From a virus, in the IMG/VR virus record IMGVR_UViG_3300045988_173593, positions 446 through 64,445 of that record: DNA of 64,000 nt. One strand, written 5' to 3'. Made by a program: the position numbers and the translations under genes. Below are positions 10,308 to 46,393 of this stretch, in pieces. The notes beneath the pieces were generated by a model that saw nothing but the letters and a program-made list of their open reading frames with translations, searched no databases and was not told the DNA's origin. Numbering within the stretch: the stretch's first letter is position 1; each line of letters opens with the position of its first letter.

Positions 10308-10321
10308 CCCGGATTGTCAAT
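10308..10321 (-). promoter_or_regulatory. ATTGACAATCCGGG-family motif (sense on minus), 34 nt upstream of the 10274 start
   Basis: 1 of 11 copies; see findings. Confidence 0.6.
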
Positions 10322-10331
10322 CTGAGTCTTT

Positions 10332-10784
10332 TTATCCATGGTTGCTTTCATTCTTTTCTGCCTTAGTCCATCCGTCCCATCCGAAGAACTGGCAGTAGTT
10401 GCCCCAGCGGCGCGCCTTGTTCAGCCAGAGATAGCGGCGCGGGTCATACCAGCCGTAACGGTCTTTGACCAGCGTATAACAGTTCCGCTTGAAGCGTTCG
10501 TTGGAAGCGTCGAACTGCTCCCTGGTTCCGCCCTCGTGATATTCCACATCATGAATCAGCGCGGCGGGCTCGAACAGTCCCGCACTTGCTGTGACGATCT
10601 CCCGAAGCCAGTCAGGGAACCGGTCGGGACCGATGCCGTTGTAGATTTTCCCGATTTCCGTGATGCTGTATTTGTCAAGGATATGAACGTTCTCAAGCTT
10701 GAGATCATATGCCTTGCGGACAAGTTCAAGTGTTGCAGTGCTCATTTTCGTGTTTTTCCTTCCATTGTTTGATTCTCCGATCAC
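10332..10784 (-). CDS. hypothetical protein (possible lysis-module component)
   Basis: 150 aa; no recognisable catalytic motif. Confidence 0.45.
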   Translation of the reverse strand: MIGESNNGRKNTKMSTATLELVRKAYDLKLENVHILDKYSITEIGKIYNGIGPDRFPDWLREIVTASAGLFEPAALIHDVEYHEGGTREQFDASNERFKRNCYTLVKDRYGWYDPRRYLWLNKARRWGNYCQFFGWDGWTKAEKNESNHG

Positions 10785-11139
10785 CGAGCCATTCTGTAGC
10801 GTCCAGTTCAGCTTGCTTCGCAGGAGCCTCCAACTTCTTACGCCGGAATGTCTTCATCAGGAGATATTTCACGAGCCCCATCACGTGCCGCTGGTAGGCG
10901 TGATAGAGCTCATGGATTACGCTCCCGAAGAACACCTCATCCGACCGGTCACCGGCTATTTTAAGCGTGTCCGTCAGGGCGCAATACATTGCTGTAACTA
11001 CACCCTCAACGCCAAATTTCAGAGGCTCGTCTGGTATCTTCTGCCATGCAAACTCATTCAGCCAGTCGGCTCGTCCGGAGTCAGCGTATTTCCAAGTGTT
11101 GCAGTATAGTTGAGTGTTCATGATTTTATTTACCTTCAC
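10726..11139 (-). CDS. HExxH motif protein (putative small zinc metallopeptidase)
   Basis: VIHELYHAYQRH. Confidence 0.45.
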   Translation of the reverse strand: MKVNKIMNTQLYCNTWKYADSGRADWLNEFAWQKIPDEPLKFGVEGVVTAMYCALTDTLKIAGDRSDEVFFGSVIHELYHAYQRHVMGLVKYLLMKTFRRKKLEAPAKQAELDATEWLGDRRIKQWKEKHENEHCNT

Positions 11140-12947
11140 ATGTCATAGGTTTCCAGTTCAACAATGGTAGGATAGTTTGCAGCTACGGTAATGTCTGCCA
11201 ACCTATGGTAGTAGTAGCTCTTGCTGTTCGAGAACGTGAACTCTTTCCACTCATATCCAGTAGTCCATGTCAAGCCTGACGCAGTATACAAGTCTGTCCA
11301 TGTGCTGCCGTCATCAGAGCCCTGAAGGATGAAAGAGGTGATAGCCTGCTGTGCGATATCACCGGAAGCTGTACCCTGAAATCTGAGCTTCTGCACAAGC
11401 ACTGGTTTCGTCTTATTTTGCCACTGAAGCCACCACGAAGAATTTGATGCTCCTGTCCATCCAGAAGAGCTACCTGTTACCCCGTCGAAGGCTTTCCACG
11501 GAGCAGAGTTAGTGCTGTAGAAACTGCTGGCACTGATTTCCCACTCGTCGGAGCTCTCGCTGGTCATGCCGGTAGGACTGGTCAGCGTTGGCGTGCCTGT
11601 GTAAAGCAATGACACAATCACCAATGCATCCGCGCTGTAGATTCCGCCGACGACCGGCGTGACGCTGGTATATGCCAGCCCCGCTGTGACATCGCTTTCG
11701 AAACTCCACGTTCCGGCTGTCGAGTCGAATACCGCCTTGTAGCCGCTCCATGTCTTCGCGGATACGTCCACGCTGGCGCACTTGTAATACTCCGCCGAGG
11801 TGCCGCCTGTGCTTTCGCCCTCATACGTTCCTGCGACATTGAAGATAGTTACGCCGCTCTTGATATTTGCAGCAGTCAAGTTCGTATCACCTGCGACGGT
11901 AACTTCTCCCTTGAGATACGAACCTTTAGAAATTACTTGTGCGTTTGCCGCCGGTGTAATCGTAAAAGCATTCAACGCGGTTCCGACTGTCAGTGTTTGC
12001 GCGCTCTTAACATAGCCCTTTGGCACTGTAACAACGTTATCAGACATTGAGGCTGTCACTGTGGGGATTGTGCCTGTTATCTTTTCGTCCTTAGCGTATG
12101 CCGTCTTGTCCTGTAAAATATCGCTGGCTGTCGCTGTCGCGTCGCTGGTGTCCGTTCCGGTGCTGATTTCGTTTACCGCATTGGCACACTGGTACAATGT
12201 CGAATCCTGCGCCAGACTTCCGCCTTTGGCATTGATCGCCGTCACGAGCGCATCACGGGCGCCGTCCAGAGCCGAAAGCACAGTATCGAGCGAGCCCCCT
12301 GTAGTGCTGAACTCTTTGGATAGCTCTGTGATTTCGCTATCACTAAGAGCACGGTTGTAGACGCGGCAGGCGGCAAGGTAGCCGGTCATTTTTGTATCTC
12401 TCCCAATAGAACCTGAAGAAGTAAAGTTTGTGCCTAAAGCAATACCAGCCCCGATTGTTGCGGAAAATGTCCGGCTTGCTGAAAGATTACCGTCTACATA
12501 TAATTTTTGTGTTGTTCCGTCGTATGTGCACGCAATATGGTGCCAGCCATCTTTAATATTAGTCGTAGCATCTATTAGGTTTTCATCAGACCCGTTTTTG
12601 TAGGTATATAATCTAGGATACCCATTATTTGTCATGACTTCCATGTTATGACTGTTAGTCCACGGTCCTAACGCAAACAAGCAGTCACCTGATTGGAAAT
12701 AGGCATGGAATGAAAATGTGAAAGCATCTGCAACTTGAAAAGAGTTGTTATAAAGCGCACTGCTTCCATCAAAATAGGCACACTGCCTGCCTCCAAAAGT
12801 CTGAAACGTAACTGAACCTGAATTTGTGAGCGTATATGCACAATCTGCATTTTCAGCCAGTGGTGCATAAAATACAAGTCCATTTGTTGGTATTGCCATA
12901 AATAACCTCCTTAAGTTAATCTGTTGTGACTGTCCAACCACGATCAA
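11136..12947 (-). CDS. tail fibre / receptor-binding protein
   Basis: 603 aa, S/T/G-rich beta-like composition. N-terminus MAIPTNG is paralogous to the next gene. Located in the tail module. Confidence 0.55.
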   Translation of the reverse strand: MIVVGQSQQINLRRLFMAIPTNGLVFYAPLAENADCAYTLTNSGSVTFQTFGGRQCAYFDGSSALYNNSFQVADAFTFSFHAYFQSGDCLFALGPWTNSHNMEVMTNNGYPRLYTYKNGSDENLIDATTNIKDGWHHIACTYDGTTQKLYVDGNLSASRTFSATIGAGIALGTNFTSSGSIGRDTKMTGYLAACRVYNRALSDSEITELSKEFSTTGGSLDTVLSALDGARDALVTAINAKGGSLAQDSTLYQCANAVNEISTGTDTSDATATASDILQDKTAYAKDEKITGTIPTVTASMSDNVVTVPKGYVKSAQTLTVGTALNAFTITPAANAQVISKGSYLKGEVTVAGDTNLTAANIKSGVTIFNVAGTYEGESTGGTSAEYYKCASVDVSAKTWSGYKAVFDSTAGTWSFESDVTAGLAYTSVTPVVGGIYSADALVIVSLLYTGTPTLTSPTGMTSESSDEWEISASSFYSTNSAPWKAFDGVTGSSSGWTGASNSSWWLQWQNKTKPVLVQKLRFQGTASGDIAQQAITSFILQGSDDGSTWTDLYTASGLTWTTGYEWKEFTFSNSKSYYYHRLADITVAANYPTIVELETYDM

Positions 12948-13701
12948 TGAGTGTCTGTTTATCTGTTAATCCCTGACCAGTTGGTGGTGCTGATGTTTCC
13001 TGATAGTTTATGTCCAAAGTTCCATTGGTTTTCGCATTCAAGACAAGCGATGCCAGTATATTATTCACAACATCAGAGGTAAATTTGTTAGAGTAGGCGG
13101 CAAGGTATTTTAATGCTGTGTTTTGCGCTATATTCAGCATAGTTAAACCGTTATTATTGCACGCTAACGTCATTAGGTTTGCATTATTACTGATATCAAG
13201 AGCTGACAAAGCGTTCCCCTTACAATCCAGTGAAGTTAATGTGGGACATAAACTTATGTCGATGGATGTTAATGTGCTAGTCGTACAATTTAATGCTGTA
13301 ACTGCTCCTTGTATCGTTGTTGTTCCTGCTGACAAGGTAAATTCAGCAGGGAATTCCGTATAGGTCTGGGATGTAGCTCCATTTGTTACAATGACAGAGC
13401 CTGTTGCATTGATTGCTACTTTACTTTGTCCTTGTGATCCGCTTTCTGATACGAGTGTAATTATTTCATCTCCTGGTTCTCCGCCTCCTGTCGGCGTCCC
13501 GATGATCGCCATTGCGTCGGATTCAAATGCGGATGTGTCGCCGCCGGAACTTCCGGAACTATTCGCGAACGGGATGAAGAACTTATTGTTGACCAGCAAG
13601 CCTTTCTGATTCGCTGTCGGCTTGGAAGTGCTCAGAAAGAGCCCGTCGATCACAACCCCGGTGCCACAAACAACTCCATCTGTCGGTATCGCCATAATCA
13701 A
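12916..13701 (-). CDS. tail fibre protein with leucine-rich repeats
   Basis: LTSIDISLCPTLTSLDCKGNALSALDISNNANLMTLACNNNGLTMLNIAQNTALKYL shows LxxLxLxxN periodicity. Confidence 0.55.
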   Translation of the reverse strand: MIMAIPTDGVVCGTGVVIDGLFLSTSKPTANQKGLLVNNKFFIPFANSSGSSGGDTSAFESDAMAIIGTPTGGGEPGDEIITLVSESGSQGQSKVAINATGSVIVTNGATSQTYTEFPAEFTLSAGTTTIQGAVTALNCTTSTLTSIDISLCPTLTSLDCKGNALSALDISNNANLMTLACNNNGLTMLNIAQNTALKYLAAYSNKFTSDVVNNILASLVLNAKTNGTLDINYQETSAPPTGQGLTDKQTLIDRGWTVTTD

Positions 13702-15977
13702 GCCTCCTCTGCTGGGATGTTGAAGTCATAGAGCACGGTCTGCGCGGAACCGCTATAGACGCTGGAACCGTCCGCCGAAACCGTAACCGTCCGGATGGAA
13801 ACGGTTTTCGTGGACTCGTCGCCGTCCGCCTGCGCAACCGCGAACTGCAACCCGGCGGCAAGCGAACCTTGCAGCGTCCACGCGCCGGAAGCCTTCAGAT
13901 ACAGATTCAGTGCGTTGGTGTCGAGATAAAAATCACCGTCCGTGCCGAGCTCATTTGACGGCGCACCTGTCCCGTTGAAGATCGTTTTTCCGTCCGTGCC
14001 TTCCGCCTTGACATTGGTATCGGTTTCGCCGATCATCCAGTGCTTTGTGTCCGGGTCAATGCTCGGAGTCAGCCCGTCGGAACCGTCCTGACCGTCCGTG
14101 CCATCCGTGCCGTTCGTAACCGTAAACGTTGACGTCGTTTCATCAGTATAAGTGATGGTGTAGGTATCAACATTGCCGCTGGTTCCGGTTTTTTCAATGG
14201 ATGCGATTCCACGGCCGTCCGAGCCGGTTTCTCCCTTCGCGACAAGGAGCGTCCAGTAGTCGTTCGAGACAGTCGCCGCACTCGCGGGCGGAGCGTTGCC
14301 GGAACCGGCAGCAGCGTTGATGTATCCCCAGAGCGAGCCGTTGTATTGAACGGCATCCATTGCGGTGTCGGTCTTCTGGTAAGTCGAGGCGGCATCATAC
14401 GCGCCGCGCACTGTCAGCCCGGTTCCGTCGGAGCCGCGATAGGCATTGAAAAAGTCGTCGAGGCTCTTTCCTTCGTTGCCCTCCTGTTCCAGCCAGAGCT
14501 GATACGCTGATTTGCCGTCCGCGCCGTCCGCGCCTTTCGGGATTCCAAAACTGAAATGAAACTCTTTCTCCGTATTCTCGCCGGATGCGGTAATGCTTGC
14601 CGTGGCTTCGCTTCCCGCCGCCAAAGTTTCGGCTGTTGCATCCGGAGTCCCGAAACCGGCGCTGGTTCCACTGGTTCCGTCGTTTCCGATATACTTCACC
14701 CAGACCGCACCGCTGAAATCTTCGGCGTCCGGACTTTCAACCTCTGTTTCGGAGTGTATTTCCGCGCGATATTTCAACGTGTCGGAAGGCGTGAGGCTGA
14801 ACCCTGTCCCGCTTGCGTCGGAGGCATACGCCACATACATATAGGAACTGGAACCCGCCGTTCCCTGTTGCCCGAGAATCCGGATTGCACCGCTCCAGCT
14901 TCCGCCGTTGTCGTTCGATGTTCTCATATAGGCGTCGCCCCCGGCATATTCGTCATGCCAGAGCGTCGAACCGTCCACGCTGTATTGCGTCTTGAGTTCC
15001 GGCGCGGGAGTTCCGTCTTCGCCCGCCGGTCCTCTGGGGATATACATGGCGTCCGACCAGTCCGCTCCGACCACGGAAATTCTCTGCCGGTAATATTGGT
15101 CCGTCTCCTGATTTTGTATATCATGCCAATCAGTTGATCCGTCTGCGCTGAACTGGAATTCAAACTTGTTTCGGAGAAGCGACAATACCCATGACTGGCT
15201 TGCTATCCCCATTGCATTGGATTCCGGGACATCTGCCGACCTCTGAAAGGCGATTGGTTTGTTGATATAGATTCGGAACTGGAATCGTTTGATCGTTTCA
15301 CCGTTGGAAAGAATCGCATGTTCCGCTGTAAGTTGCAGAGATTCGGTGTTTGTGAACTCAAAGTTCTCCATGAGTTTGTCGGACATGGTCAGGAAATGAA
15401 CTCCGAAGATACCTTCCGACTTTCTGGAATCATCCACATAGTTCACGGCGTTTGTTTCCGCGTCGTAATCGCCTTCCGCAAGAATCATAAGGCTTTCGGG
15501 AACCGAAACCGTCGCGCCTTCTTCAAACGCATAATCGGCGGTTTCCGCCGCGCCGAGTGTAAAGGCATAACCTTTTTCTATTGCGCTTCTTGAAACATAA
15601 GCGAAGCTCTGTTCTTCTCCGCCGGCGTTTCTGAGCACCAGGACACCCGTTTTCGGGATATACCGTTCTGTCGCGGAGACTTCTACGGAAATACTGGAAA
15701 CGCTTCCACCGGATTCAATTGCGGAAAGATTCTTTCCCTCATAGCTGGAGATGAAATTGTTGTCAATAGCAAAGAGTGACGATACCGACATGCTTTCAAA
15801 GCCGGTGTAAGGCGTCCATTCCGATGGCGTTTCGGAGGTTCCTCCGTCCGTCACATAGTGAATCTCATAGTCTTCCGTGTTTTCCAGATAGGAAATCAGT
15901 TGATTCTGATTTGCAAATGGAGCACCTTTTGCATCATAAATGTCGCCGCTGGTAAAATCAATATAAATGATCTTCAT
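13698..15977 (-). CDS. large tail/baseplate protein with short collagen-like G-X-Y tract
   Basis: 759 aa; GPAGEDGTP and NGTDGTDGQDGSDGLTPS. Confidence 0.55.
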   Translation of the reverse strand: MKIIYIDFTSGDIYDAKGAPFANQNQLISYLENTEDYEIHYVTDGGTSETPSEWTPYTGFESMSVSSLFAIDNNFISSYEGKNLSAIESGGSVSSISVEVSATERYIPKTGVLVLRNAGGEEQSFAYVSRSAIEKGYAFTLGAAETADYAFEEGATVSVPESLMILAEGDYDAETNAVNYVDDSRKSEGIFGVHFLTMSDKLMENFEFTNTESLQLTAEHAILSNGETIKRFQFRIYINKPIAFQRSADVPESNAMGIASQSWVLSLLRNKFEFQFSADGSTDWHDIQNQETDQYYRQRISVVGADWSDAMYIPRGPAGEDGTPAPELKTQYSVDGSTLWHDEYAGGDAYMRTSNDNGGSWSGAIRILGQQGTAGSSSYMYVAYASDASGTGFSLTPSDTLKYRAEIHSETEVESPDAEDFSGAVWVKYIGNDGTSGTSAGFGTPDATAETLAAGSEATASITASGENTEKEFHFSFGIPKGADGADGKSAYQLWLEQEGNEGKSLDDFFNAYRGSDGTGLTVRGAYDAASTYQKTDTAMDAVQYNGSLWGYINAAAGSGNAPPASAATVSNDYWTLLVAKGETGSDGRGIASIEKTGTSGNVDTYTITYTDETTSTFTVTNGTDGTDGQDGSDGLTPSIDPDTKHWMIGETDTNVKAEGTDGKTIFNGTGAPSNELGTDGDFYLDTNALNLYLKASGAWTLQGSLAAGLQFAVAQADGDESTKTVSIRTVTVSADGSSVYSGSAQTVLYDFNIPAEEA

Positions 15978-16004
15978 GCTATCTCCGTTCCGTGTTTTCC
16001 TTAT

Positions 16005-16018
16005 CCCGGATTGTCAAT
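16005..16018 (-). promoter_or_regulatory. ATTGACAATCCGGG-family motif, 28 nt upstream of the 15977 start
   Basis: 1 of 11 copies. Confidence 0.6.
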
Positions 16019-16031
16019 CACGAAGCGTTTT

Positions 16032-18722: not shown

Positions 18723-19799
18723 TTATGATTCTCCAAACGCTTTTTCAGGCATGGAAAGCGGTTTCCAGTCCAGCTTTTCATGAAAACCAAACAGTTTGTA
18801 ACGAGTTTTCTGATACCCTGTCTTTTTATCAATCGGAGCCGGAAGCCCATTTTTATCGAGCCATATGGGCTCCGTCAGACGTTCAATAGAGTTTTCATAA
18901 TCTTCAAATTTATCTTTACCCCATTTATCCTTGAATCCTTCATAACTGTTCCATACGACCTGTCCCGTTACCCCTCCAGGATATTTGCCTTTCTTGTTCT
19001 CATAAGCATAAATTGGAACGAATCCACCATTTTCACCTTTCATATAAATTGACATATCCCCGACAACTTTCCGCCATGCTCTTTTCGTCTTGACAAGTTT
19101 TCCCTCGTCATTTTCCAGCACATAAACCACCGGATCACCGATCAAACGAATAGAAATATCCCAGTAACTCCATTTAACTTCGCCGTTTGTTTCACGCGTA
19201 ACTTTCCTTTCGGCTTTCAGATTATCCATTTTCCACTGATTCGCAGTTAATTTCGTGCCTCCTACTACAATGCTTTGAGCATTGATGCTTTGGCGGTATG
19301 TCATAATCCACGCCGCCTTGAAATCTTCCAGACTGTAGGCAAGGTCTATCACTGGATAGCTTACATCGCGTGATACAAGCAGCCGGCTTCCTGAACTGGA
19401 CTGAATCGGATTCCCGTCAATATCCTGTTCCGGTGTTTCCGTGATGATGTCGCTGGTAAGGCTCCATGAAGTCAATCCCATTTCCCACGGCGGAGTATCT
19501 TCCGTGATTTCATTTCCGTTGACATCTGTCAACAGATTGGAAGAGTAAGAACATGTCACAATGACTTTTGCGCCGTCTCCCTCATTGGAAATACTCCGCT
19601 CTCCGGTCGCCTTGAACTGCGGATAGCTCGGATGCGCCGCATATTTGGACGGCAGATTGCTGTCGCCTAAAACAAGATAAGGCTTGCGGATATCTTCTCC
19701 GCTGAGTTCATAAATGTATTGCCGTGTTGCGGTCTTGTTTCCGTCTTTGTCAACGGAAATATCGTTGTTGTCACTGACACCCCTGAAAGCGATTGCCAT
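18723..19799 (-). CDS. tail/baseplate protein
   Basis: 358 aa, position directly after the tape measure region. Confidence 0.45.
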   Translation of the reverse strand: MAIAFRGVSDNNDISVDKDGNKTATRQYIYELSGEDIRKPYLVLGDSNLPSKYAAHPSYPQFKATGERSISNEGDGAKVIVTCSYSSNLLTDVNGNEITEDTPPWEMGLTSWSLTSDIITETPEQDIDGNPIQSSSGSRLLVSRDVSYPVIDLAYSLEDFKAAWIMTYRQSINAQSIVVGGTKLTANQWKMDNLKAERKVTRETNGEVKWSYWDISIRLIGDPVVYVLENDEGKLVKTKRAWRKVVGDMSIYMKGENGGFVPIYAYENKKGKYPGGVTGQVVWNSYEGFKDKWGKDKFEDYENSIERLTEPIWLDKNGLPAPIDKKTGYQKTRYKLFGFHEKLDWKPLSMPEKAFGES

Positions 19800-19913
19800 A
19801 TTCTTGCCTCATATATAACGATGTTTTATAAAAAGAGGAAAAGCCATATCATGACTACGGCTCTTGTCGGCGCAACAAAAAGGGTAAAAAAAACGCCTAT
19901 CCTCTCCTAACTG

Positions 19914-19927
19914 CAATTGTCAATTTA
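19914..19927 (-). promoter_or_regulatory. motif variant GCAATTGTCAATTT with shared upstream CGCCTATCCTC-CCT-A, 115 nt upstream of the 19799 start
   Basis: Variant copy lacking CCGG. Confidence 0.45.
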
Positions 19928-20525: not shown

Positions 20526-20632
20526 TCTGATTTCTCCTGCCGTGATGTTTTGCTGTGGGAGGAAGATTTGCCACAGCAACGAGCAAATCTTGTCGGCGGC
20601 AAGGGGAGGGAGACCGCCTATCCTCACCTTAC

Positions 20633-20646
20633 CCCGGATTGTCAAT
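20633..20646 (-). promoter_or_regulatory. ATTGACAATCCGGG-family motif, 108 nt upstream of the Bro-N gene
   Basis: 1 of 11 copies; extended CCTATCCTCnCCTTA flank shared with copies at 19914 and 28153. Confidence 0.6.
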
Positions 20647-20700
20647 TTGCTTGAAAAACAGACGGCGGCGAGCTATAATAAATTGACAAATTGAGGAATA

Positions 20701-28047: not shown

Positions 28048-28152
28048 ACCATTTTCTCTTTTCTCTGAGTTTTGTTAACTGAAGGAGGAAAGCGGCGCTC
28101 AGTCCTACACCGCCTTGTCAGACTGCCTTTCAGCAGACCTATCCTCCCTTAA

Positions 28153-28166
28153 CCCGGATTGTCAAT
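28153..28166 (-). promoter_or_regulatory. ATTGACAATCCGGG-family motif, 106 nt upstream of the 28047 start
   Basis: 1 of 11 copies. Confidence 0.6.
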
Positions 28167-28599
28167 TTGCGAAAACCTGAAGATAGAAAAGCAACTTCTG
28201 TGAATACCATTCTTCTTCCGTTGCCGTGCTCAAACGAATGCGTTTCACTTCAACTTTCAGTTGCGGCATTCCGGAAATCTCGACTCTTGATTTTTCACCT
28301 GCAATGTCAAACTCTTCCTCAATCGCATTTGCGATCTGCCCTACCGTCATGGTTCCGGTATTCAGCGGGACAAAAATATCGTATTGAATCAGTGGACTTG
28401 TCGGAATCCATACGCGCCTGTTTGTGAGAAGCTGTTCTTCCCCTCCCAGCCATGTTTCCCGAATCCACAATTTTTTCCCTTTGGGATCGAAGTTCTTGTT
28501 TTCAAACTGAAAATCTTTATCCGTTGCAATATCTTTCTCAATGATACGGACTCGCATTGCGTTTCTTATGACTTCATCCAGAATAGCCATATTATTCAC
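28162..28599 (-). CDS. head-tail joining / tail completion protein
   Basis: Position and size. Confidence 0.45.
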   Translation of the reverse strand: MNNMAILDEVIRNAMRVRIIEKDIATDKDFQFENKNFDPKGKKLWIRETWLGGEEQLLTNRRVWIPTSPLIQYDIFVPLNTGTMTVGQIANAIEEEFDIAGEKSRVEISGMPQLKVEVKRIRLSTATEEEWYSQKLLFYLQVFAN

Positions 28600-29470: not shown

Positions 29471-29494
29471 AAAAAGTAATCCTTTTTACAGTAA

Positions 29495-29508
29495 CCCGGA
29501 TTGTCAAT
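29495..29508 (-). promoter_or_regulatory. ATTGACAATCCGGG-family motif, 25 nt upstream of the 29470 start
   Basis: 1 of 11 copies. Confidence 0.6.
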
Positions 29509-29806
29509 TAAATCAGAGGAGATATATTATCCTAAGGAGGTTGCAATGCGTTTTAAAAAAAATCATATCATAATAACAGCCGTAACAGTATTTATTATTT
29601 TTGCGATAATTGCATTAATCTGTTACCGTCATGCGCACCGCAACGATCACAAATACTGGATTAATCACCGATCAGGCGTGATACATAATTACAGATGCAG
29701 ACACTTTGACGGCAAGCCTGACAATCAGCTTACCGATCATTTGCCCGATGCCGGAGATACCTTTTATCGCGATTGCCGCATTTGCGGCGGGCGCAGCCCC
29801 AAATAA
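29501..29806 (+). CDS. small single-TM protein with C-terminal Cys/His cluster
   Basis: TAVTVFIIFAIIALICY; CRHFDG...CRICGG. Confidence 0.35.
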   Translation: MSIKSEEIYYPKEVAMRFKKNHIIITAVTVFIIFAIIALICYRHAHRNDHKYWINHRSGVIHNYRCRHFDGKPDNQLTDHLPDAGDTFYRDCRICGGRSPK

Positions 29807-35028: not shown

Positions 35029-35091
35029 GATTGACTTCTCCTGTTATTTTTCTTGCAGGCTTCATGCCTGTTTTCATATACCCCGGATTGT

Positions 35092-35105
35092 CAATTTGAG
35101 ACTTT
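35092..35105 (-). promoter_or_regulatory. ATTGACAATCCGGG-family motif, 64 nt upstream of the scaffold gene
   Basis: 1 of 11 copies. Confidence 0.6.
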
Positions 35106-36514: not shown

Positions 36515-38014
36515 TTATTCTTCTTCAGAATCATTGTTCTGCTCTTTTTTCGCAAAAGGATTCCCGTTCCCCTGAATAACCGGACTGTTCTGCATGGATT
36601 CCTCTCTTGCCTTTTCTTTTTCTTCCAGGAATTCCTCAATTGTCTTTTTTGGGTCGCCATAACCGTTTTCAAGCCAGATATTTCTCTTTTCTTCGGTTGT
36701 CAGGCTGTCGGTTCCATCTACCGCAACAAGCTCCTGAACAGACAGATTTGCCTCGGCAAAATCTTTACTCGGCGTGTAACGTGTTCCCAGAATCTCTTCT
36801 TCATCCACTCCAATCCACATTGCCGCATAACGCAATTGTTCTGTAATCGCATCCCCTGCGACAGAGTTGATGATCTGCAACGGCGAAGTATTGGAATCCT
36901 GAATCAGCTGAATCGCGACTCCTGACTGATTGCTTTTATTGTCGGAAAGACTCAAGGCATCGGACGAACAGAGCTCTTTCAGCTTTTCCACTTCCTGTGA
37001 AAGAATGGAAAGCGATTGTGCAGGAACTTCAAGGTATTGCGGCTGTGCCCCCTCTGGAAGCGCATTGAGCGCACCTGAGTTTACATACAACTCTTTCAGC
37101 AATGAAGTGATCTTATTATCATCTCCTTTTAGTCCAGTGATAAACAAGGGACTTTGCCCTGTCATGTAAAGAACCTGCCTGTAATCAGCATAAAGTTGAT
37201 AAAGTGAAATTTCAGAATCTGCAATATTCAGAATTGGCGGTTCATCAATTGACGTTCCGGAAAGACTGGACACGCCGCACCAGGTAAACGGAATCCGATT
37301 CATCCTTTTTCCGTGATAATCCGGATACACAATGTTCCCTGAATTCGGTTCCAATAGATCAAAATCAGGCCATGCGCCAAATTCAATTCCCGCCTGATAA
37401 TATTCATTGTTCCGGTCGAGTCCGAGAACCCTCAGCTGCTTTTTTTCAACATCCTGCTTTGTCGCGGTGTCATATTCATATCCGGATTCGTCCAGAAGCA
37501 CAAAACGGGCAAAAGACCTGCCATTCTCAGTATCAAATTTTGTCCGGATGAAATCTCTCGCACGGTAAGTCTGAATCACGAACGGCGCATCGTCTCTTCC
37601 GGTGGATTCCAGCAGACAGCAAATTAATCCATGTGACAGTTGCGCTTCATTCAGTCTGCGCTGTAGGGATTTCAGTCCGTCTCCGTATTGCGTTGCTCTG
37701 TCTTTCAGAAAATCAAGCTTTCCATTTTCCGGTAGGGATATGTCCGGCTCGCCCATGTTGAGCATTCCCACATAACGGTTAAGCGCTTTCCGGGTGTAGT
37801 CGAAAAAGAGAGCCCGGAAAAGATACGCTTTGTAATCATCGTTGTTTTTCAGTTGCCACTTATCGGCAGGAAGATACTTAACAGTTTTTTCTTTGATCTT
37901 TTTTTGACCGCCAAGACAATCTTCCACTCGTTCACGGCAGGCTGCCAGTTTGTCATATCCGTAATAGGCGAACTCCGCCGCCGTTGCAACTTCAGTTTTT
38001 CTTCCCGTTCCCAT
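36515..38014 (-). CDS. portal protein
   Basis: 499 aa between terminase and MuF-like, acidic C-terminus. Confidence 0.7.
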   Translation of the reverse strand: MGTGRKTEVATAAEFAYYGYDKLAACRERVEDCLGGQKKIKEKTVKYLPADKWQLKNNDDYKAYLFRALFFDYTRKALNRYVGMLNMGEPDISLPENGKLDFLKDRATQYGDGLKSLQRRLNEAQLSHGLICCLLESTGRDDAPFVIQTYRARDFIRTKFDTENGRSFARFVLLDESGYEYDTATKQDVEKKQLRVLGLDRNNEYYQAGIEFGAWPDFDLLEPNSGNIVYPDYHGKRMNRIPFTWCGVSSLSGTSIDEPPILNIADSEISLYQLYADYRQVLYMTGQSPLFITGLKGDDNKITSLLKELYVNSGALNALPEGAQPQYLEVPAQSLSILSQEVEKLKELCSSDALSLSDNKSNQSGVAIQLIQDSNTSPLQIINSVAGDAITEQLRYAAMWIGVDEEEILGTRYTPSKDFAEANLSVQELVAVDGTDSLTTEEKRNIWLENGYGDPKKTIEEFLEEKEKAREESMQNSPVIQGNGNPFAKKEQNNDSEEE

Positions 38015-38037
38015 TCATCTGCTCCTGGTTTTTACTA

Positions 38038-38051
38038 ACCCGGATTGTCAA
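38038..38051 (-). promoter_or_regulatory. ATTGACAATCCGGG-family motif, 24 nt upstream of the portal start
   Basis: 1 of 11 copies. Confidence 0.6.
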
Positions 38052-38059
38052 TCTTGCAG

Positions 38060-39502
38060 TCACCCCACGTTTCCGGCGGCAACCACAATGATCTTTCTGT
38101 TCGAGTATTCGCCGAGCAGAAAATACCCGGTCAGGTCGTAAAGATGGTCTTCCTGCGTTGTGTCTACATCATCCGGGTCGCGCTGGCTTCTCTGAAGCAC
38201 TGGAACAGTCCTGATAAAGTTCCGGCAGTGATCGAAAACAAACAGCCCCGGGTCGGCATCGCGTTCAATTGCCCCCGTCAGCCTGTCTCGAAGAAAAGTA
38301 AGCATCTGGTGCCGTGTTCCAGGAGCCTTGCTGCACGGTTTGAAGAATACTCCGTAATCCTCAAATTGTTTGGCAACAGTAGACTGCGAAGCGGACGATG
38401 AAGCAAAAATTGCGGAGTCGGCAATGCTTTCATGCACATGATACCCCAGCATTTTCTCTGTTTCCCTGATCCGTTCCGCACGGTCACGGATCGTTGATTT
38501 GTCGCCTTCGTTTGGTTTTCCTGTGGATCCGTAAAGTTCCTGAATCAGGAACGCATCGCCGGGAATCGTAGGACGCCGTTCTCCGCTTGGCAGAACATAA
38601 TCGGTTCCGTCCGACACGGCGAACCATCCAACCGCCCACGGGTGCGAATTTCCGTCATCGTAGCTTTTGACGATATACCACGAATCAGGAATACGGAATC
38701 TTGGCATGACATGAATTGATTCACGCCATAAGTCATCCACCGCGCCGCCGGCGGTGATGTTCCAGTCGCCTTCCAGCATCGCCTTGACAAGCCAGTCCTG
38801 TCCCAGACCTTTCAGACGGTTCGCATATTCTTCCTGGTTCAGCGAAGGATTGTCGGAAAGTTTCGCAGGAATGAACTGCCGGAGCATCCCGCCCTCTGCC
38901 GCCGGAGTCCGCCAGATTTCCCCGGCTGGCTGAGGATCAATGAACATCGCCTTGACCCAGTTATGCCCCGGACCACCCGGATTGGAACCGCAAAGGATTT
39001 TCGGAAATGTCAGATTCGGGATCATTTTCACAACGGCGGGATCGGCTTTTATCTGCTTCGGAACACGGCATCTGCCTCGCAGAAACCGATATTGATATTC
39101 CGTGAAATGTGTCAGTTCGTCAATCATCAGAACCCCGATTTCCGCGCCCTGATACTTCATCACGTCTTTTTCATATTGGCAGTGGCAGAGATGAATCACG
39201 CTTCCTGATTCCATGAATCGAATCTTAGGCGGTGCTGTCGTAATCTTGACTTTTCCGGATTCAACCTCGCTTGCAAGAAGACCGGGAAAACCGGTTTCCC
39301 CCTCGAAGTGGTTTTTCAGAAGATCGTCGCTCAACCTTCGGAACAAATAAACCTGCAACTCCCTCACGTTCATGCAGAGAAAGATTGCAAGGGCGCGGAT
39401 CAGAAAACTTTTCCCCCCGCCGGCTGCCCCTCCGAATAAAATCTCGGTCGCGTCGCTTTTCAGAACTTCGCCCTGCCGTTTGTGCAGAATCAGATTACTC
39501 AT
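38060..39502 (-). CDS. terL: terminase large subunit
   Basis: Walker A GGAAGGGKS near the N-terminus; C-terminal nuclease-like acidic motifs; 480 aa. Confidence 0.82.
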   Translation of the reverse strand: MSNLILHKRQGEVLKSDATEILFGGAAGGGKSFLIRALAIFLCMNVRELQVYLFRRLSDDLLKNHFEGETGFPGLLASEVESGKVKITTAPPKIRFMESGSVIHLCHCQYEKDVMKYQGAEIGVLMIDELTHFTEYQYRFLRGRCRVPKQIKADPAVVKMIPNLTFPKILCGSNPGGPGHNWVKAMFIDPQPAGEIWRTPAAEGGMLRQFIPAKLSDNPSLNQEEYANRLKGLGQDWLVKAMLEGDWNITAGGAVDDLWRESIHVMPRFRIPDSWYIVKSYDDGNSHPWAVGWFAVSDGTDYVLPSGERRPTIPGDAFLIQELYGSTGKPNEGDKSTIRDRAERIRETEKMLGYHVHESIADSAIFASSSASQSTVAKQFEDYGVFFKPCSKAPGTRHQMLTFLRDRLTGAIERDADPGLFVFDHCRNFIRTVPVLQRSQRDPDDVDTTQEDHLYDLTGYFLLGEYSNRKIIVVAAGNVG

Positions 39503-40403
39503 TTACTGCATCCTTTCGTTCAAACAGCGGAAGACTTTCGGCGAAAATCTCGTCCGAAAACCGCTTATGCAAAAACAAATGCTCCGTGGTCTTCCGGTTG
39601 TTATGTGTGCCACAGGTTGAAACCTTGTCCCTGCTCCAAACCGAGAAAAAATCATCCGGCATCGCGTATTCCGAAACCCATACAGGGTAATCACGTGTCC
39701 GGAGCCAATCATAAAAACGGGAATAATCAAAGCAACCATCCTTATATTCCTTCGTCCCTCTGTATGGGATATCGCAGTAGACTACCGAATCATGCGGAAT
39801 TTCAACAGACTGATAATCTAAGGAAAATATCTGTAAATTGCTTTCCATACTTTCCAGACTTTGCAGTCTTTTCAGATTTTCCAGACTTTGCAGACTTTGT
39901 AGGCGTCGCAGACTGTATTTCAGCTTGTCACGTAATTTCCACGTATCAGCATTCTTTGCAATGTTTTGTCTTGAAGCATCATCCGTATCAATCCCGAAGT
40001 CGCGTTTCAGCAACGAAAAATCGCCTAAGACACGTGCGTAATGCAGAGCCTTTTTCCACGGTTCGATTTTGCGCCCGTAGATATAAGAATGTCCATCGTT
40101 CCCGAAGCTCCAGCAAGTCCTGACATAAGTGTCCGTGTCTTTCAGACGCTCGAAGTTCTCGCGGCTGATCCAGCGTTTCTCGTTTCGGTATTTTCCGTTG
40201 ATCGCATCCACAAACAGGCGCGGCATGTCTGGCGCAATGTCGTTGACGATGAACTTTTTATATTTCCCGCTGAGCATCGCCGCGTGAGTTACGGCGCAAC
40301 CGCCGCAGAACAGATCGACAAAGTATTCTGCCGATGGCAGTTGTTCCACAATATCACGGGCGATTCTGTTTTTGCTTCCCATATAGGGCATTCCATAATT
40401 CAT
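39495..40403 (-). CDS. Dam-like (D12 class) N6-adenine DNA methyltransferase
   Basis: PYMGSK N-terminal motif; FCGGCAV (motif I, FxGxG); VVYCDIPY (motif IV, DPPY-type). Confidence 0.75.
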   Translation of the reverse strand: MNYGMPYMGSKNRIARDIVEQLPSAEYFVDLFCGGCAVTHAAMLSGKYKKFIVNDIAPDMPRLFVDAINGKYRNEKRWISRENFERLKDTDTYVRTCWSFGNDGHSYIYGRKIEPWKKALHYARVLGDFSLLKRDFGIDTDDASRQNIAKNADTWKLRDKLKYSLRRLQSLQSLENLKRLQSLESMESNLQIFSLDYQSVEIPHDSVVYCDIPYRGTKEYKDGCFDYSRFYDWLRTRDYPVWVSEYAMPDDFFSVWSRDKVSTCGTHNNRKTTEHLFLHKRFSDEIFAESLPLFERKDAVNE

Positions 40404-40420: not shown

Positions 40421-40954
40421 TCAGTTGTTTTCAATCGTAAGCGTGAAGCGGTCGGTTGTCTGAACTGAACCCGAAAGCTCTGTCTCCATCTTTTCGCTGT
40501 ATCCGCGCCGTTTCCCTACGGTTTTCAGCAGAAAGAAGATTGCATCCTTGTCTCCTTCCCTGACAAGTTTCACCAGCTGGTTTTCGGCAAGGTCGATAAT
40601 CGTTTCCTTCTGGCTTTGAAAGTAATCATTTGCTTCCGGAACCAAAGTCAGATATTTTGCCGCTGTCATCCGGTCGATTCCGGCAAGCTGGGCAAGGGCT
40701 GTCATGATTCCGCCGCTTCTCTTGGCGCATTCGATGAATTTCTCTTTGCTGACTTTCATCCGAAAAGCACGCCCGCGCGATTGCTGATTTCCCGCAAGAA
40801 ACCGACCATGTTCATCTCTCCACGGTTTCTGCTCTTCCGATCCTGTCGTTTCGGATGTTGTCTTTTCTTTCTGAGAGTTCTTGACGGAAGAAGCCATCTT
40901 CTTCCCGGACGCAGTGGCATTTCTTTTCTGTTTGCTCATAACACATAATCCCAT
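40421..40954 (-). CDS. terS: terminase small subunit candidate
   Basis: Position upstream of terL; internal HTH-like IMTALAQLAGIDRMTAAKYL. Confidence 0.5.
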   Translation of the reverse strand: MGLCVMSKQKRNATASGKKMASSVKNSQKEKTTSETTGSEEQKPWRDEHGRFLAGNQQSRGRAFRMKVSKEKFIECAKRSGGIMTALAQLAGIDRMTAAKYLTLVPEANDYFQSQKETIIDLAENQLVKLVREGDKDAIFFLLKTVGKRRGYSEKMETELSGSVQTTDRFTLTIENN

Positions 40955-41035
40955 GATTACAAGTTATCGCCGGAACGGATAAACAAAGCCTCATGCAGTG
41001 TTATTTCAACGTCTCCGGTTGTTTCTCTGCCATAT

Positions 41036-41049
41036 CCGGGATTGTCAAT
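41036..41049 (-). promoter_or_regulatory. motif variant ATTGACAATCCCGGA, 82 nt upstream of the terS start
   Basis: 1 of 11 copies. Confidence 0.55.
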
Positions 41050-41162
41050 TAAAACATCTTGCAATTGAATCAGTTCATGTGTTGCGTATTCATGGTACAA
41101 TACATAAACATGTTTTTCTTTCCTGTAATCCCCCCTATAGTCCCCCCTTAATGGTTTTCATA

Positions 41163-41173
41163 AATTGACAATC
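41163..41173 (+). promoter_or_regulatory. motif variant AATTGACAATC in plus orientation, 109 nt upstream of the AntA-like gene
   Basis: Orientation matches the downstream plus-strand gene. Confidence 0.45.
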
Positions 41174-41280
41174 AGAGCTGTATGAGAATAGACGGCTTCC
41201 TCCTTCCGTTGACAAGGGCCGCTCGTGACTATGGCGGCCTTTTCTCCCATAGTCAATTCATAGTTTGAGAAAAAAACATC

Positions 41281-41928
41281 ATGAAAGAACTTGTCAGGAT
41301 TGAAGAATCCGTAATCGGAACTGAAAAACGGAAAACCGTAAACGCCCGCGACCTTTGGAAGGCTCTGGGAAGCAAACGCCAGTTTGGAAACTGGATTGAA
41401 GACCGTCTTTCCGAATTCATCGAAGAACAGGATTTCACCGTTAACAATTTTGTTAACGGGCGCGATGCAAACGGAAGATTTACCGCGAAAGATTACCTTC
41501 TGACTCTCGACGTCGCCAAACATCTGGCAATGCTGGAACGCAACGATCAGGGACGCAGAATCCGACAGTATTTCATTGAGATCGAAAAAGCGTATCGGGA
41601 AGAGTCCCGCAAAGAATACGCCGATATCGCATTGCTTCTTGAGACAATCCGACGGCAGGAACGCGAGCTTTTCGCCGCTGAACTGGAGTTGAAGGAGTGG
41701 CGCAAACTTGCCCCGTCCTGCGAGCCGGGCGAAATTTCAAAAATCACGGGAATGCCGCGTAATTTCCTGCGCCGGGTATCAGCCACCAGCAAGCCGACGA
41801 AGCATTCTTATCACCGCTTGAAAATGGCTTTGGAGGAAGCGGAAAACATTCTCCCGGGCTTCTGCGAGGCTTTGGCATCCGGACGCATCCGGGCGGCTTC
41901 CGTTCCCGTGATTGAGTTCAAGCAATAA
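41281..41928 (+). CDS. AntA/AntB-type antirepressor domain protein
   Basis: NARDLWKALGSKRQFGNWIEDRL...QDFT matches the AntA domain pattern (aRdLh...f.nWi..ri....f.e..DF). Confidence 0.6.
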   Translation: MKELVRIEESVIGTEKRKTVNARDLWKALGSKRQFGNWIEDRLSEFIEEQDFTVNNFVNGRDANGRFTAKDYLLTLDVAKHLAMLERNDQGRRIRQYFIEIEKAYREESRKEYADIALLLETIRRQERELFAAELELKEWRKLAPSCEPGEISKITGMPRNFLRRVSATSKPTKHSYHRLKMALEEAENILPGFCEALASGRIRAASVPVIEFKQ

Positions 41929-43455: not shown

Positions 43456-44040
43456 ATGATTACAATCAAATTTATGGATGATAGAAAGTCGATTGAGATA
43501 GACGCTGAAACAATTGTCGAAGCATTAGAAACGGCGCTCTCTGATGGTGTTGACTTACGCCATGTAGACTTGCGCGGGGCTTGCTTGACCGGTGTTGACT
43601 TGCGCGATGCCTGCTTGCGCGGGGCTTGCTTGACCGATGCTGACGTTAGCTATGCTGAGTTGATCGGGGCTGATTTGACCGGTGCTGAGTTGACCCGTGC
43701 TGATTTGACCGGTACTGATTTGACCGATGCCTGCTTGACCGATGCTTGCTTGCGCCATGCTTGCTTGCGCCGTGCTTGCTTGACCCGTACTGATTTGACC
43801 GGTACTGATTTGACCGATGCCTGCTTGACCGATGCTTGCTTGATCAATGCTGATCTGCTCGGGGCCTGCTTGACCGATGCTGACGTTAGCTATGCTGATT
43901 TGACCGGTGCTGATTTAACCCGTGCTGATTTGACCGGTGCTGATTTGACCCATGCTGATTTGAGCGGTGCCCGCTTGACCGATGCTTGCTTGATCGATGC
44001 TTGCTTGATCGATGCCTGCTTGACCGGTGCAATTCGATAA
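43456..44040 (+). CDS. pentapeptide-repeat protein
   Basis: Roughly 30 consecutive A(D/N)LxG-type pentapeptides (ADLTGADLTRADLTGADLTHADLSGARL). RBS AAGAGGTGA. Confidence 0.8.
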   Translation: MITIKFMDDRKSIEIDAETIVEALETALSDGVDLRHVDLRGACLTGVDLRDACLRGACLTDADVSYAELIGADLTGAELTRADLTGTDLTDACLTDACLRHACLRRACLTRTDLTGTDLTDACLTDACLINADLLGACLTDADVSYADLTGADLTRADLTGADLTHADLSGARLTDACLIDACLIDACLTGAIR

Positions 44041-44657: not shown

Positions 44658-44701
44658 GGGTAGTAAGGCCGCGAATCTGCAATAAGTAGCGTCTTTGGTT
44701 G

Positions 44702-45553
44702 TTACTGATTTTTAGTCGGTCTTCCAAAGGCGTCTTTTTTTGTTGTTTCAAGTTTTAAGCCTAATTTTTCCGCCAGTTCCTCCCCTGATATGTATTTCTC
44801 TTTTGCGTTTAATTGAAATCCGGTGATAAATTTATTCATGTTTTCAGGCGTATCAAAAACGATAACCCGGTAATAATCTTCGTTTTCAAGATTTTTATAT
44901 TTCGCCATTGCGTCTTTACGCTTCTTCTTCATCTCGTTGATTTTTTCAACATCAGACTGAACTTCTTCAGGCAGATCATAACCGTTGATTTTTGAAAGCT
45001 CAGTTTCGTTGAACATGATTTCAATATCCGCCTGGGTGAATCCGACGTCTGCAAACTCGACCCCGTCATCAATAAATAAATCCGCAAGTTTACTGTAATC
45101 GAAAACTCCTTGCATATTTGGATTATTCAGGCGGATATTCAATTTGCGTTCCATTTTGTCATCAACGTCAATAGCCAGAACATCGAGTTCATAATCTTTT
45201 GTCTTCATGAGTTCATCAAGTACGGATAATCTTTGATGACCCCCTACAACGTTTCCAGTGCGCTGATTCCACACAATCGCATTCGCCAGCCCTTCCTTTA
45301 CGCTTTTTTTTAGCTTTTTCCGGCTTTCATCATCTATTTCTCGCGGGTTATATTCCGCCTCATGCAGTTGTGACCTATGGACACGTTGCGGTGTAAATAT
45401 TTGATATTTGCATAGTTTATTAACTTGTTCAGCTGTTTCGTTAAACTCATTTTTTTTATTGTTGGACATAAGAACCTCTCCTGTATTGAAAAACATCACG
45501 CGCGTGAATAACATTTGCCAACGGGAATTTATTTTCGACCTTTGCCCAGTCAT
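44702..45553 (-). CDS. ParB/Sulfiredoxin-like nuclease-domain protein (IbrB-like)
   Basis: VVGGHQRLSVLDEL is the ParB N-terminal GxxR box. Confidence 0.65.
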   Translation of the reverse strand: MTGQRSKINSRWQMLFTRVMFFNTGEVLMSNNKKNEFNETAEQVNKLCKYQIFTPQRVHRSQLHEAEYNPREIDDESRKKLKKSVKEGLANAIVWNQRTGNVVGGHQRLSVLDELMKTKDYELDVLAIDVDDKMERKLNIRLNNPNMQGVFDYSKLADLFIDDGVEFADVGFTQADIEIMFNETELSKINGYDLPEEVQSDVEKINEMKKKRKDAMAKYKNLENEDYYRVIVFDTPENMNKFITGFQLNAKEKYISGEELAEKLGLKLETTKKDAFGRPTKNQ

Positions 45554-46145
45554 CCGGGTAATAGGATTGAAGCATTATTTGAGCATCAGGAAAAAAAGGA
45601 CAGCTTAAGCTTCGTTCGGAAAACTGATATTCTGTAGGCGGCAATATCTTGTTGAGTTTCAGATATTGAAAAACTTTACTGCTGTTCCAAAACGCCAGCG
45701 GAAATAGTTTTGAATGCTTATAATCCACCCCTCCGTGCTCATTTATCATTGCTTGTCTTTCTATGCTTTCATACGCCATCATCCCGTATGCAATCCAGTT
45801 ACATTGAAAAAAATCACGGACATAATTTTCAATATCAGAAAAATATATTTTAGGCACACGGGAAAGCTCAATGCTTTTGTGCATATATTTTTGCTCTTTA
45901 TAAATATCACTCAGCTCAAAATGCGGAACATGCAGAATTTTTACCCTATAACGGTTTTCAATATACCGGAAATAATTGTCCTGAAGAGTGCAATGATCCA
46001 CATAATACATATAGAATACATATACCGTTCTGAAATACTTTTTGCACAAATCAAGAAGACAGACGCTATCTTTTCCGCCGCTGAAACCTACAATGATTTT
46101 TTGAGTTTCGCACTGTCCTTTTTTTATGACATCATACAAATCCAT
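45456..46145 (-). CDS. PP-loop ATP pyrophosphatase (PAPS reductase-like) family protein
   Basis: VGFSGGKDSVCLLDL P-loop SGGxDS. Confidence 0.7.
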   Translation of the reverse strand: MDLYDVIKKGQCETQKIIVGFSGGKDSVCLLDLCKKYFRTVYVFYMYYVDHCTLQDNYFRYIENRYRVKILHVPHFELSDIYKEQKYMHKSIELSRVPKIYFSDIENYVRDFFQCNWIAYGMMAYESIERQAMINEHGGVDYKHSKLFPLAFWNSSKVFQYLKLNKILPPTEYQFSERSLSCPFFPDAQIMLQSYYPDDWAKVENKFPLANVIHARDVFQYRRGSYVQQ

Positions 46146-46212
46146 AAGAACCTTATATATAATTCAAACTTTAATAACAAAAGAGCTTTAAAGCTCTTTT
46201 GTTAATTGATCT

Positions 46213-46329
46213 CAAAGCGTCAATGCATACATCACGCGTCCATATTCTCTCTCACGTCTTGTCTGCCACGCTTTCCGGGCAGCTCTACGCCTTGCCGCTC
46301 TTTTTGCTTTTGCTTTTTCACTCGCCATA
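46213..46329 (-). CDS. small basic peptide (not in ORF track, under 60 aa)
   Basis: RBS AGGAGATAATT then ATG; MASEKAKAKRAARRRAARKAWQTRREREYGRVMYALTL. Confidence 0.3.
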
Positions 46330-46379
46330 ATTATCTCCTGTTTTTTGCCATCATCACCATGATAACGGCTTATACTTAC

Positions 46380-46393
46380 CCAGGATTGTCAAT
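46380..46393 (-). promoter_or_regulatory. motif variant ATTGACAATCCTGG upstream of the small peptide and PP-loop/ParB operon
   Basis: 1 of 11 copies. Confidence 0.5.

Follow-up and report, generated by a model that had tools for sequence, protein, structure and literature searches.

The window analysed here, a stretch of 64,000 nucleotides of viral DNA (positions 446 to 64,445 of the IMG/VR record IMGVR_UViG_3300045988_173593), is probably a nearly complete, circularly permuted phage genome and not a prophage flanked by host DNA, because a CI-like repressor and an integrase (2168-4635, with the CI-like gene at 2168-3178) lie at its left edge and early genes at its right edge. Its host is likely a member of the gut Oscillospiraceae (Clostridia). 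The replication or early region spans 47.3-64 kb, with genes for RecT, a DUF2800 nuclease, DnaB, RusA, an SNF2-methylase and SSB at 47.3-63 kb. We describe a short sequence element that occurs eleven times between 10.3 and 46.4 kb, a structured leader RNA that follows it at four of these sites, and the gene at 46536-47249, which encodes a candidate regulator and lies next to the first copy. An earlier note on this DNA, made from its letters alone, had taken the copies for phage-specific late promoters or activator sites, and the analysis below examines that proposal.

The element and its distribution

The eleven sites are given in the order of leftward transcription, each with its score under a 19-nucleotide (nt) weight matrix built from the sites; L numbers are our handles for related sequences, which are introduced further on.

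46377..46395, minus strand: copy 1, AAATTGACAATCCTGGGTA (29.9 bits), found at the same position in L119, L121, L122, L123 and L198; it lies about 140 nt past the stop codon of the candidate regulator gene and is followed by a small basic open reading frame (ORF; 46210-46323) and the PAPS-reductase (45456-46145) and ParB-like (44702-45469) genes.
41162..41180, plus strand: weak variant AAATTGACAATCAGAGCTG (22.9 bits), the sole plus-strand copy, with the leader RNA and then the AntA antirepressor gene (41281-41928) behind it; its counterpart in L198 is a half-site only (ATTGACAAGAGGGG), with unchanged spacing to the AntA leader.
41033..41051, minus strand: TAATTGACAATCCCGGATA (28.5 bits), kept in L120 and L122, followed by gene 40421-40954 (putatively terS), a D12 methyltransferase and the large terminase.
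38036..38054, minus strand: AGATTGACAATCCGGGTTA (31.3 bits), of which 14 of 14 bases are kept in L120, L196 and L198 while the flanks have diverged; it lies in the 45 nt that separate terL from the portal gene (36515-38014), and the unit behind it comprises the portal and a Mu-F-like protein.
35079..35097, minus strand: AAATTGACAATCCGGGGTA (32.7 bits), with a syntenic copy in L196, followed by scaffold (34288-35028), major capsid (33069-34268) and connector genes.
29492..29510, minus strand: TAATTGACAATCCGGGTTA (31.3 bits), with a syntenic copy in L137, a contig of an Oscillospiraceae metagenome-assembled genome (MAG); it is followed by gene 29012-29470 and two more small tail-module genes, all unannotated.
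28150..28168, minus strand: AAATTGACAATCCGGGTTA (32.7 bits), with a copy in L137, followed by the leader RNA, an antirepressor-type P22_AR_N gene (27406-28047), chaperones and the tape measure.
20630..20648, minus strand: AAATTGACAATCCGGGGTA again (32.7 bits), with the leader RNA and then a Bro-N gene (19920-20525) behind it.
19908..19926, minus strand: weak variant AAATTGACAATTGCAGTTA (22.8 bits), followed by the leader RNA, gene 18723-19799 and further tail genes, four tail genes in all.
16002..16020, minus strand: TGATTGACAATCCGGGATA (29.0 bits), followed by a collagen-like tail-fibre gene (13698-15977) and tail proteins.
10305..10323, minus strand: AGATTGACAATCCGGGGTA (31.3 bits), followed by gene 9933-10274 (holin-like, with an N-terminal membrane helix), the lysis genes and the last late genes.

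The portal, the scaffold, the three antirepressor-type genes and the PAPS-reductase/ParB-like pair agree with the gene labels of the earlier note, and its labels terS and head-tail are unconfirmed. Most of its coordinates also hold, others being off by 1-10 nt (35092 should read 35082, 38038 should read 38039 and 41163 should read 41164).

Aligned in sense orientation, with position 0 at the A of ATTGACAAT, the sites share a block of 19 contiguous bases, AAATTGACAATCCGGGnTA, that follows the pattern AA-ATTGACAAT-CCGGG-n-TA. Information content is high from -2 to +16 and near zero across the 40 nt upstream, and no second conserved block is present within 40 nt upstream or 60 nt downstream. The conserved downstream element that the earlier note had suggested seeking in 60 nt of flank amounts to a run of purines at +21 to +23, past which conservation is lacking out to 60 nt. 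The plus-strand 14-mer CCCGGATTGTCAAT has 11 matches at two or fewer mismatches where 0.59 are expected from dinucleotide-preserving shuffles, one of these (59653) being a chance match inside an ORF; for the core ATTGACAAT the corresponding figures are 13 and 1.13. The 14-mer is exact at seven positions (10308, 16005, 20633, 28153, 29495, 35082 and 38039), carries one mismatch at 41036 and 46380 and, in opposite orientation, two mismatches at 41164, and the variant site at 19911-19924 (ATTGACAATTGCAG) retains the ATTGACAAT half only. The weight matrix singles out exactly 11 positions at 22.8-32.7 bits, in line with the eleven copies first reported; the next-best match, at 11.4, is at chance level, shuffled sequence reaching up to 16.6. 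The core alone also matches at 1590 and 59653, in both cases within an ORF and with no CCGGG half; the match at 1590 encodes Met-Asp-Ile-Asp-Asn.

The placement of the sites is equally regular. By our gene calls, all eleven are intergenic, though only 9.8% of 9000-47300 is intergenic, and all eleven are co-oriented with the next gene, as the earlier note had stated; their distance to the start codon is 24-111 nt, so that its lower bound of 24 nt stands and its upper bound of 115 nt becomes 111. No above-chance site occurs in the window outside 10.3-46.4 kb, and the weight matrix finds no copy either in the early region or at the CI/cro switch near 2.1 kb. At that switch, a different 15-mer, GTGATTAAGAACAAT, occurs twice (2076-2090 and 1833-1847, minus strand), flanking a small gene (1840-2031) divergent from the CI-like gene; these repeats are probably immunity operators, unrelated to the late motif. 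Every copy of the element contains a perfect TTGACA, and at none does a -10-like hexamer lie 16-18 nt past it, in agreement with the earlier note. The two hexamers at 16-18 base-pair (bp) spacing that characterize promoters of the sigma-70 family are therefore not present, and a single contiguous block stands instead. Plus-strand moron genes have sigma-70-like promoters instead, at 21750 and 29871; both had been recognized earlier as TTGACA-17-TATAAT, and their boxes are in fact TTGACT-17-TATAAT and TTGACA-16-TATAAT, respectively. The opposite strand of the near-palindromic core of the 29495 site also reads TTGTCA-16-TATATT (29501-29530, plus strand), a sigma-70-like arrangement facing gene 29546-29806 on that strand, and host-type and phage-type promoters may thus overlap there back to back.

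Relatives of this phage were obtained only through a metagenome scan and exact look-ups, the alignment of distant homologues being too divergent to serve as a query. Protein-based searches for related loci found nothing in species-representative genomes or IMG/VR, and megablast found no cultured relative of the head module among 50,697 GenBank phages; the capsid protein is only about 25% identical to proteins of Bacillus, Brevibacillus and Vibrio phages. In the close relatives L119, L121, L122 and L123, whose regulator is 84-98% identical, the motif lies about 140-150 nt behind the regulator gene, and L122 has it at three further syntenic positions. A second clade, with a regulator about 75% identical (L120, L196, L198 and L199), has kept it behind the regulator, before the portal and before the scaffold; at the portal site of that clade the 14 core bases are identical, amid diverged flanks and beside a 5-nt indel. 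The search of related phages that the earlier note had recommended therefore locates the motif at syntenic positions in relatives with 75-98% identical regulators.

That note had also allowed that the motif might be a selfish repeat, resembling a miniature inverted-repeat transposable element (MITE), that is common in the host chromosome. Repetition itself is all that speaks for this explanation, or for a chance repeat. When 185,579 species-representative genomes were scanned with AATTGACAATCCGGGNTA, 30 single matches turned up across unrelated phyla, which is the chance level, and the sole multi-copy locus was the 5.4-kb Oscillospiraceae MAG contig L137, a prophage fragment related to the phage, with two syntenic sites. 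Among the matches listed in IMG/VR (118 contigs) the 14-mer is single-copy only. The motif is thus not a repeat of bacterial chromosomes; furthermore, only 0.59 matches are expected by chance, terminal inverted repeats and target duplications are absent, and beyond the 19 nt the sites share nothing save the leader RNA at four of them. We regard this explanation as extremely improbable.

Leader RNA and the proposed start of transcription

Longer shared flanks had been taken in the earlier note for subfamilies of the motif. The flank CCTATCCTC is real, and is the 5' end of a structured leader RNA; three of the flanks belong to this separate element, the layout of which is GAGGAUAGG, helix P2, GACAAG, helix P3 and UUCCUC. 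The copies are as follows.

28082..28149, minus strand: leader RNA (52.9 bits), beginning 6 nt past the GGG of the motif.
20556..20628, minus strand: leader RNA (45.6 bits).
19832..19907, minus strand: leader RNA (44.3 bits).
41181..41249, plus strand: leader RNA (51.7 bits), a GAGAAUAGA variant with a compensating UUCUC.
L137:2787-2854, L122:14884-14952, L198:16326-16395 and about 20 IMG/VR loci (L161-L192): leader RNA copies in relatives.

A gapped search, with a pattern that placed no constraint on P2 or P3, found the leader in 33 stretches of IMG/VR, of which about 25 are unmistakable copies. When 21 distinct copies are aligned, 95.5% of cells pair, as against 45-64% when the partners are slid; compensatory changes occur in 8 of 15 pairs, and both P2 and P3 co-vary. 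Rfam 15 has no family for this RNA and none in the window at gathering thresholds, and at E<=10 the copies in the window and one Bacteroidota-type copy returned only noise. The genes behind the leader are antirepressor-type here and HNH/NUMOD4-like homing-endonuclease genes in Bacteroidota-type phages. The loop of P3 (7-9 nt) is complementary to one or two downstream boxes, the second about 10 nt before the start codon, and its sequence differs in nearly every lineage (AACTCGATA, GCGTTTA, CCAATAC, TGACTATGG and others). This complementarity suggests a translational switch, which may control the translation of homing-endonuclease and antirepressor genes, and the leader may constitute a new RNA family spanning phages of two host phyla. 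As an element common to Bacteroidota-type and Firmicutes phages, it also provides an independent marker of transcription starts.

The region just past the motif is constrained in several respects. The earliest ribosome-binding site is the Shine-Dalgarno (SD) sequence of the portal gene, AGGAG, which begins 13 nt past the GGG of the site at 38039, and at three sites start codons lie 24-27 nt past GGG. Positions 21-23 are purines in 32 of the 33 cells of the alignment, and every site has an A-run (AAAAC) or GAGGA beginning at position 19-21, as do sites in relatives in which the intervening bases differ. At four sites (19924, 20646, 28166 and 41164) the leader RNA begins at position 20-21, with fixed spacing. 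Its copies in IMG/VR (about 20 contigs) begin 2-8 nt, mostly 4 nt, past a TAnnTTTG box, which occupies -12 to -5 of Bacteroidota sigma-A promoters (PMC9723704; PMC7366714). Because it begins just past this box, the leader can be taken as a 5'-terminal element that starts at +1 in those copies. By analogy, and in agreement with the arguments from the SD sequence and the purine run, we infer that transcription starts here about 6-8 nt past GGG, at approximately position 20-21. The motif would then span about -22 to -4, with CCGGG over the usual position of a -10 box and TTGACA at about -19 to -14, where it would not be usable as a -35 box because of that position; such a layout would be neither that of a -35/-10 promoter nor that of a class-I or class-II activator site. 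As a separate possibility, the TA behind GGG might supply positions -12/-11 of a -10 box; we rejected this, since the start would then fall in leader helix P1 and on the SD sequence of the portal gene.

The same features bear on the proposal that the motif is an activator site aiding the host sigma-A polymerase, with TTGACA serving as -35 box or class-II site and transcription starting some 30-45 nt downstream. Each copy does have a perfect TTGACA, and zinc-finger late activators acting at multiple late promoters are known from P2/P4 and Mu. Nevertheless, the hexamer such a promoter would need 16-18 nt past TTGACA is absent at all sites, a start at least 30 nt past TTGACA would fall on or beyond the SD sequence or start codon at 38039, 29495 and 16005, and at four sites it would lie inside the helices of the leader RNA. 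We accordingly hold this proposal to be improbable.

The candidate regulator and the role of the sites

The earlier note had singled out the gene at 46536-47249 as a regulator whose binding to the motif should be tried, a choice supported by the sigma-region-4-like domains of its product and by its position directly upstream of the first copy.

46536..47249, minus strand: candidate regulator of 237 amino acids, with a four-cysteine zinc ribbon and two helix-turn-helix (HTH) domains of the sigma-region-4/LuxR type.

The zinc ribbon has the conserved form CxxC...CxxC; the first HTH lies at about residues 118-150 (...GVTRQAIHTGI...), and the second, at residues 166-212, is of the sigma-region-4/LuxR type. 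Pfam Sigma70_r4_2 matches the protein at E=3e-10, as expected of a region 4 HTH of the sigma-70 family. TIGR02937 matches by the C-terminal part only and below its cut-off (41.4 against 42.9), PHROG matches are to generic sigma/HTH families over residues ~127-223 only, that is, the HTH region, and one source labels the protein a 'MarR family' regulator. The best match to a solved structure, in a profile hidden Markov model sequence search of PDB chains, is a tandem-HTH protein that binds DNA repeats (2lvs). A structure model built from 6 sequences was unusable (predicted local distance difference test score, pLDDT, of 46), and one from 32 sequences was good only at residues ~100-215; the N-terminal 100 residues are predicted to form the zinc ribbon, a long helix and a hairpin, and Foldseek matches of the model are weak. 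The family is rare: clustering at 90% identity gives 5 clusters, at 50% there are 57 representatives among 1.8 billion proteins, and tblastn finds no homologue in 50,697 GenBank phages.

Upstream of the gene come the SSB gene (47434-47826) and a terminator (47345-47373); downstream of it lies the first motif copy. The upstream neighbour is SSB in 9 of the 9 contigs where that gene was called and annotated, and the motif lies 140-150 nt behind the regulator gene in all 7 relatives covering that DNA. Domains and synteny together point to the product of 46536-47249 as the most likely reader of the motif. A degenerate copy of the motif (~47400-47415, minus strand, GTTGACAAAATCCGC) also occurs where the SSB gene ends, upstream of both the regulator gene and its terminator, with the counterpart GTTGACAATCCAGGTTT at that place in the 75% clade (L120:1007-1023 and L198:9742-9760); it may reflect autoregulation or a differently timed promoter of the regulator.

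The window contains no gene for a phage RNA polymerase: its ORFs of more than 500 amino acids encode the tail fibre, a tail protein, the tape measure, an SNF2-methylase fusion and unknown tail-module proteins, none with polymerase motifs. In a temperate siphovirus without a polymerase of its own, the host polymerase must therefore be used. On balance we favour the reading that the motif marks a phage-specific class of late promoters, at which transcription would start just past the motif and the product of 46536-47249 would act as reader. The late promoter or activator site proposed in the earlier note is supported by the non-random position and orientation of the copies, their absence from the early region and the CI/cro switch, their syntenic conservation and the exclusion of a host repeat. 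Under this reading, the eleven copies would split the late half of a temperate siphovirus genome of ~64 kb into about ten leftward units and one rightward unit. The centres of the two halves, TTGACAAT and CCGGGnTA, are separated by about 10 bp, a spacing at which the two HTHs of a single molecule could occupy successive major grooves on the same side of the helix. The protein would then recruit, or substitute for, part of the specificity apparatus of the host RNA polymerase. Because the replication module ends with its gene and the first motif copy comes directly behind, late transcription would begin once the protein accumulates.

Several points weigh against this reading. Pfam, NCBIfam and PHROGs detect no sigma region 2 in the regulator, and promoter melting is thus unexplained; no region-2 protein was found among the other early genes. 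The link between protein and motif is drawn from adjacency and domain logic. Contigs encoding homologues of 28-30% identity contain candidates with TTGACA, which is also the -35 consensus of the host, and no clear repeated motif: de novo motif search in L126, L128, L129 and L193 gave, for example, TTGACAGTGCGGCAGTATAG behind the L128 regulator and two AATTGACAA before a late gene of L193, so that these contigs do not establish co-variation of protein and site. CCGGG is GC-rich for what would be positions -11 to -7, and the TA after GGG is TG in some relatives. The fixed spacing of the leader could have been inherited through duplication of a cassette rather than selected. Finally, terminators show no consistent pattern ahead of the sites, and read-through transcription from upstream is also possible.

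The lack of separating terminators is one of the observations that would suit repressor operators, like the stoperators of cluster A mycobacteriophages, that block elongation and silence the prophage, since read-through between the units would need blocking. Eleven asymmetric intergenic sites, all oriented with transcription, and a protein with two HTHs would suit them as well, and the motif core may resemble the TTGACA-containing stoperator of L5. On the other hand, the CI/cro switch and the early region, where such operators should occur, have no copies, the switch having its own repeat GTGATTAAGAACAAT; the candidate gene lies behind SSB, where the early and late regions meet, and is away from the immunity module by the integrase; the run of purines, together with a 5'-terminal leader RNA that begins at a fixed distance, points to a start site; and no other promoter is visible for these units. 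Silencing in this manner is, in our judgement, unlikely.

An orientation-specific motif that lies in leaders with no preceding terminators might also act after initiation, as a loading or pause site for an antiterminator (ops, nut/qut) or as a site of RNA processing or protein binding within one long polycistronic message of the late genes. An antiterminator, however, loads once, and ten copies would be needless in a terminator-poor array; moreover, the motif itself folds into no RNA secondary structure, no promoter is apparent upstream of the first unit, and the plus-strand copy at 41164 has no co-directional transcription upstream. To a post-transcriptional or elongation role we therefore give little credence.

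Returning to the proposed late promoters, a bolder proposal can be attached to them, which we put forward tentatively and consider rather doubtful: that the zinc-ribbon/double-sigma4-HTH family is a new type of phage initiation factor without region 2, guiding the host polymerase to contiguous promoters of ~19 bp that stop a few bases short of the start, about ten of which, in a temperate Firmicutes siphovirus, would replace the usual single one. If the promoter and its reader are as supposed, they would offer a compact, portable promoter/factor pair for Clostridia, an annotation rule for transcription units in related uncultured phages, and a test case for initiation directed by a protein with only sigma-4-like domains.

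Other genes of the window deserve mention in their own right. A pentapeptide-repeat protein (Qnr/MfpA/HetL-like; 43456-44040, plus strand), of a fold known as a DNA mimic, is encoded in the plus-strand moron block between the AntA and ParB-like genes, and its gene is built of 15-nt DNA repeats. The phage has an unusually rich set of genes of DNA-modification type (44702-46145, 50141-51460, 52515-54905 and 39495-40403, all minus strand), comprising two PAPS-reductase-domain proteins, a ParB-like nuclease-domain protein, an SNF2-helicase/N6_N4-methylase fusion and a D12 adenine methylase; the motif itself contains CCGG. Between the integrase and the lysis genes lies a gene for a protein with a retropepsin-like aspartyl protease domain (8167-8718, plus strand).

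Comparison with known systems

In the usual picture of late transcription in temperate phages of Gram-positive gut bacteria, one activator acts at one promoter ahead of terS. The phage described here appears instead to have about ten dedicated promoters of a single phage-specific class. The proteins of the RinA, ArpU, LtrC and PBSX Xpf type, which are thought to switch on late genes, resemble the candidate regulator in being small, sigma-region-4-like and encoded at the boundary of replication and packaging; the regulator gene likewise lies behind SSB and ahead of the packaging genes, and its product weakly matches the Xpf-type model NF005385 (E 0.003), with no match to a RinA- or ArpU-named model in Pfam or NCBIfam (both at E<=0.01). 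RinA/ArpU/LtrC-type systems act at one promoter upstream of terS (PMC3152322). Here, in contrast, there are eleven candidate target sites, and the regulator has an N-terminal zinc ribbon and a second HTH.

Multiplicity of sites is found in other phages. Ogr of P2, Delta of P4 and C of Mu are zinc-binding or HTH activators that serve several (four) late promoters through one recognition sequence; their sites have dyad symmetry and are placed at about -55 or over the -35 of sigma-70 promoters that keep a -10 box, whereas the motif described here is asymmetric, would lie at about -22 to -4 and has no -10 box. The stoperators of cluster A are likewise numerous and asymmetric (13-14 bp), and the protein that reads them is a monomer with two DNA-binding domains; the present sites share with them their number, asymmetry, intergenic location and orientation with transcription. 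Stoperators, however, occur in the early arm as well as the late one, including at the operator of the early lytic promoter, while the motif is found neither in the early region nor at the immunity switch.

With respect to geometry, the closest likenesses lie elsewhere. T7-type promoters are contiguous, 17-23 bp long and present in many copies per genome, and the motif resembles them as a contiguous element of ~19 bp abutting the proposed start, in about ten copies that head blocks of genes, with a purine-rich initial transcribed sequence; unlike T7, this is a temperate siphovirus with CI and integrase and no gene for a single-subunit RNA polymerase. Sigma-54 promoters (-24 GG/-12 GC) offer an analogy in that they have two short elements near the start, separated by about one helical turn, which two HTH-type modules of a single factor recognize, and no -35 box. 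It is an analogy only: there is no relationship in sequence or domains, and no enhancer-binding ATPase is evident. The proposed geometry may therefore be closer to that of sigma-54 or T7 promoters than to the -35/-10 arrangement, and in function the sites resemble the multi-copy, phage-specific promoters of T7-like phages, of T4 late genes and of P2 and Mu. If read correctly, the system belongs to a known kind, that of phage-specific late promoters, with an unusual layout, eleven sites and a candidate factor from a rare family.

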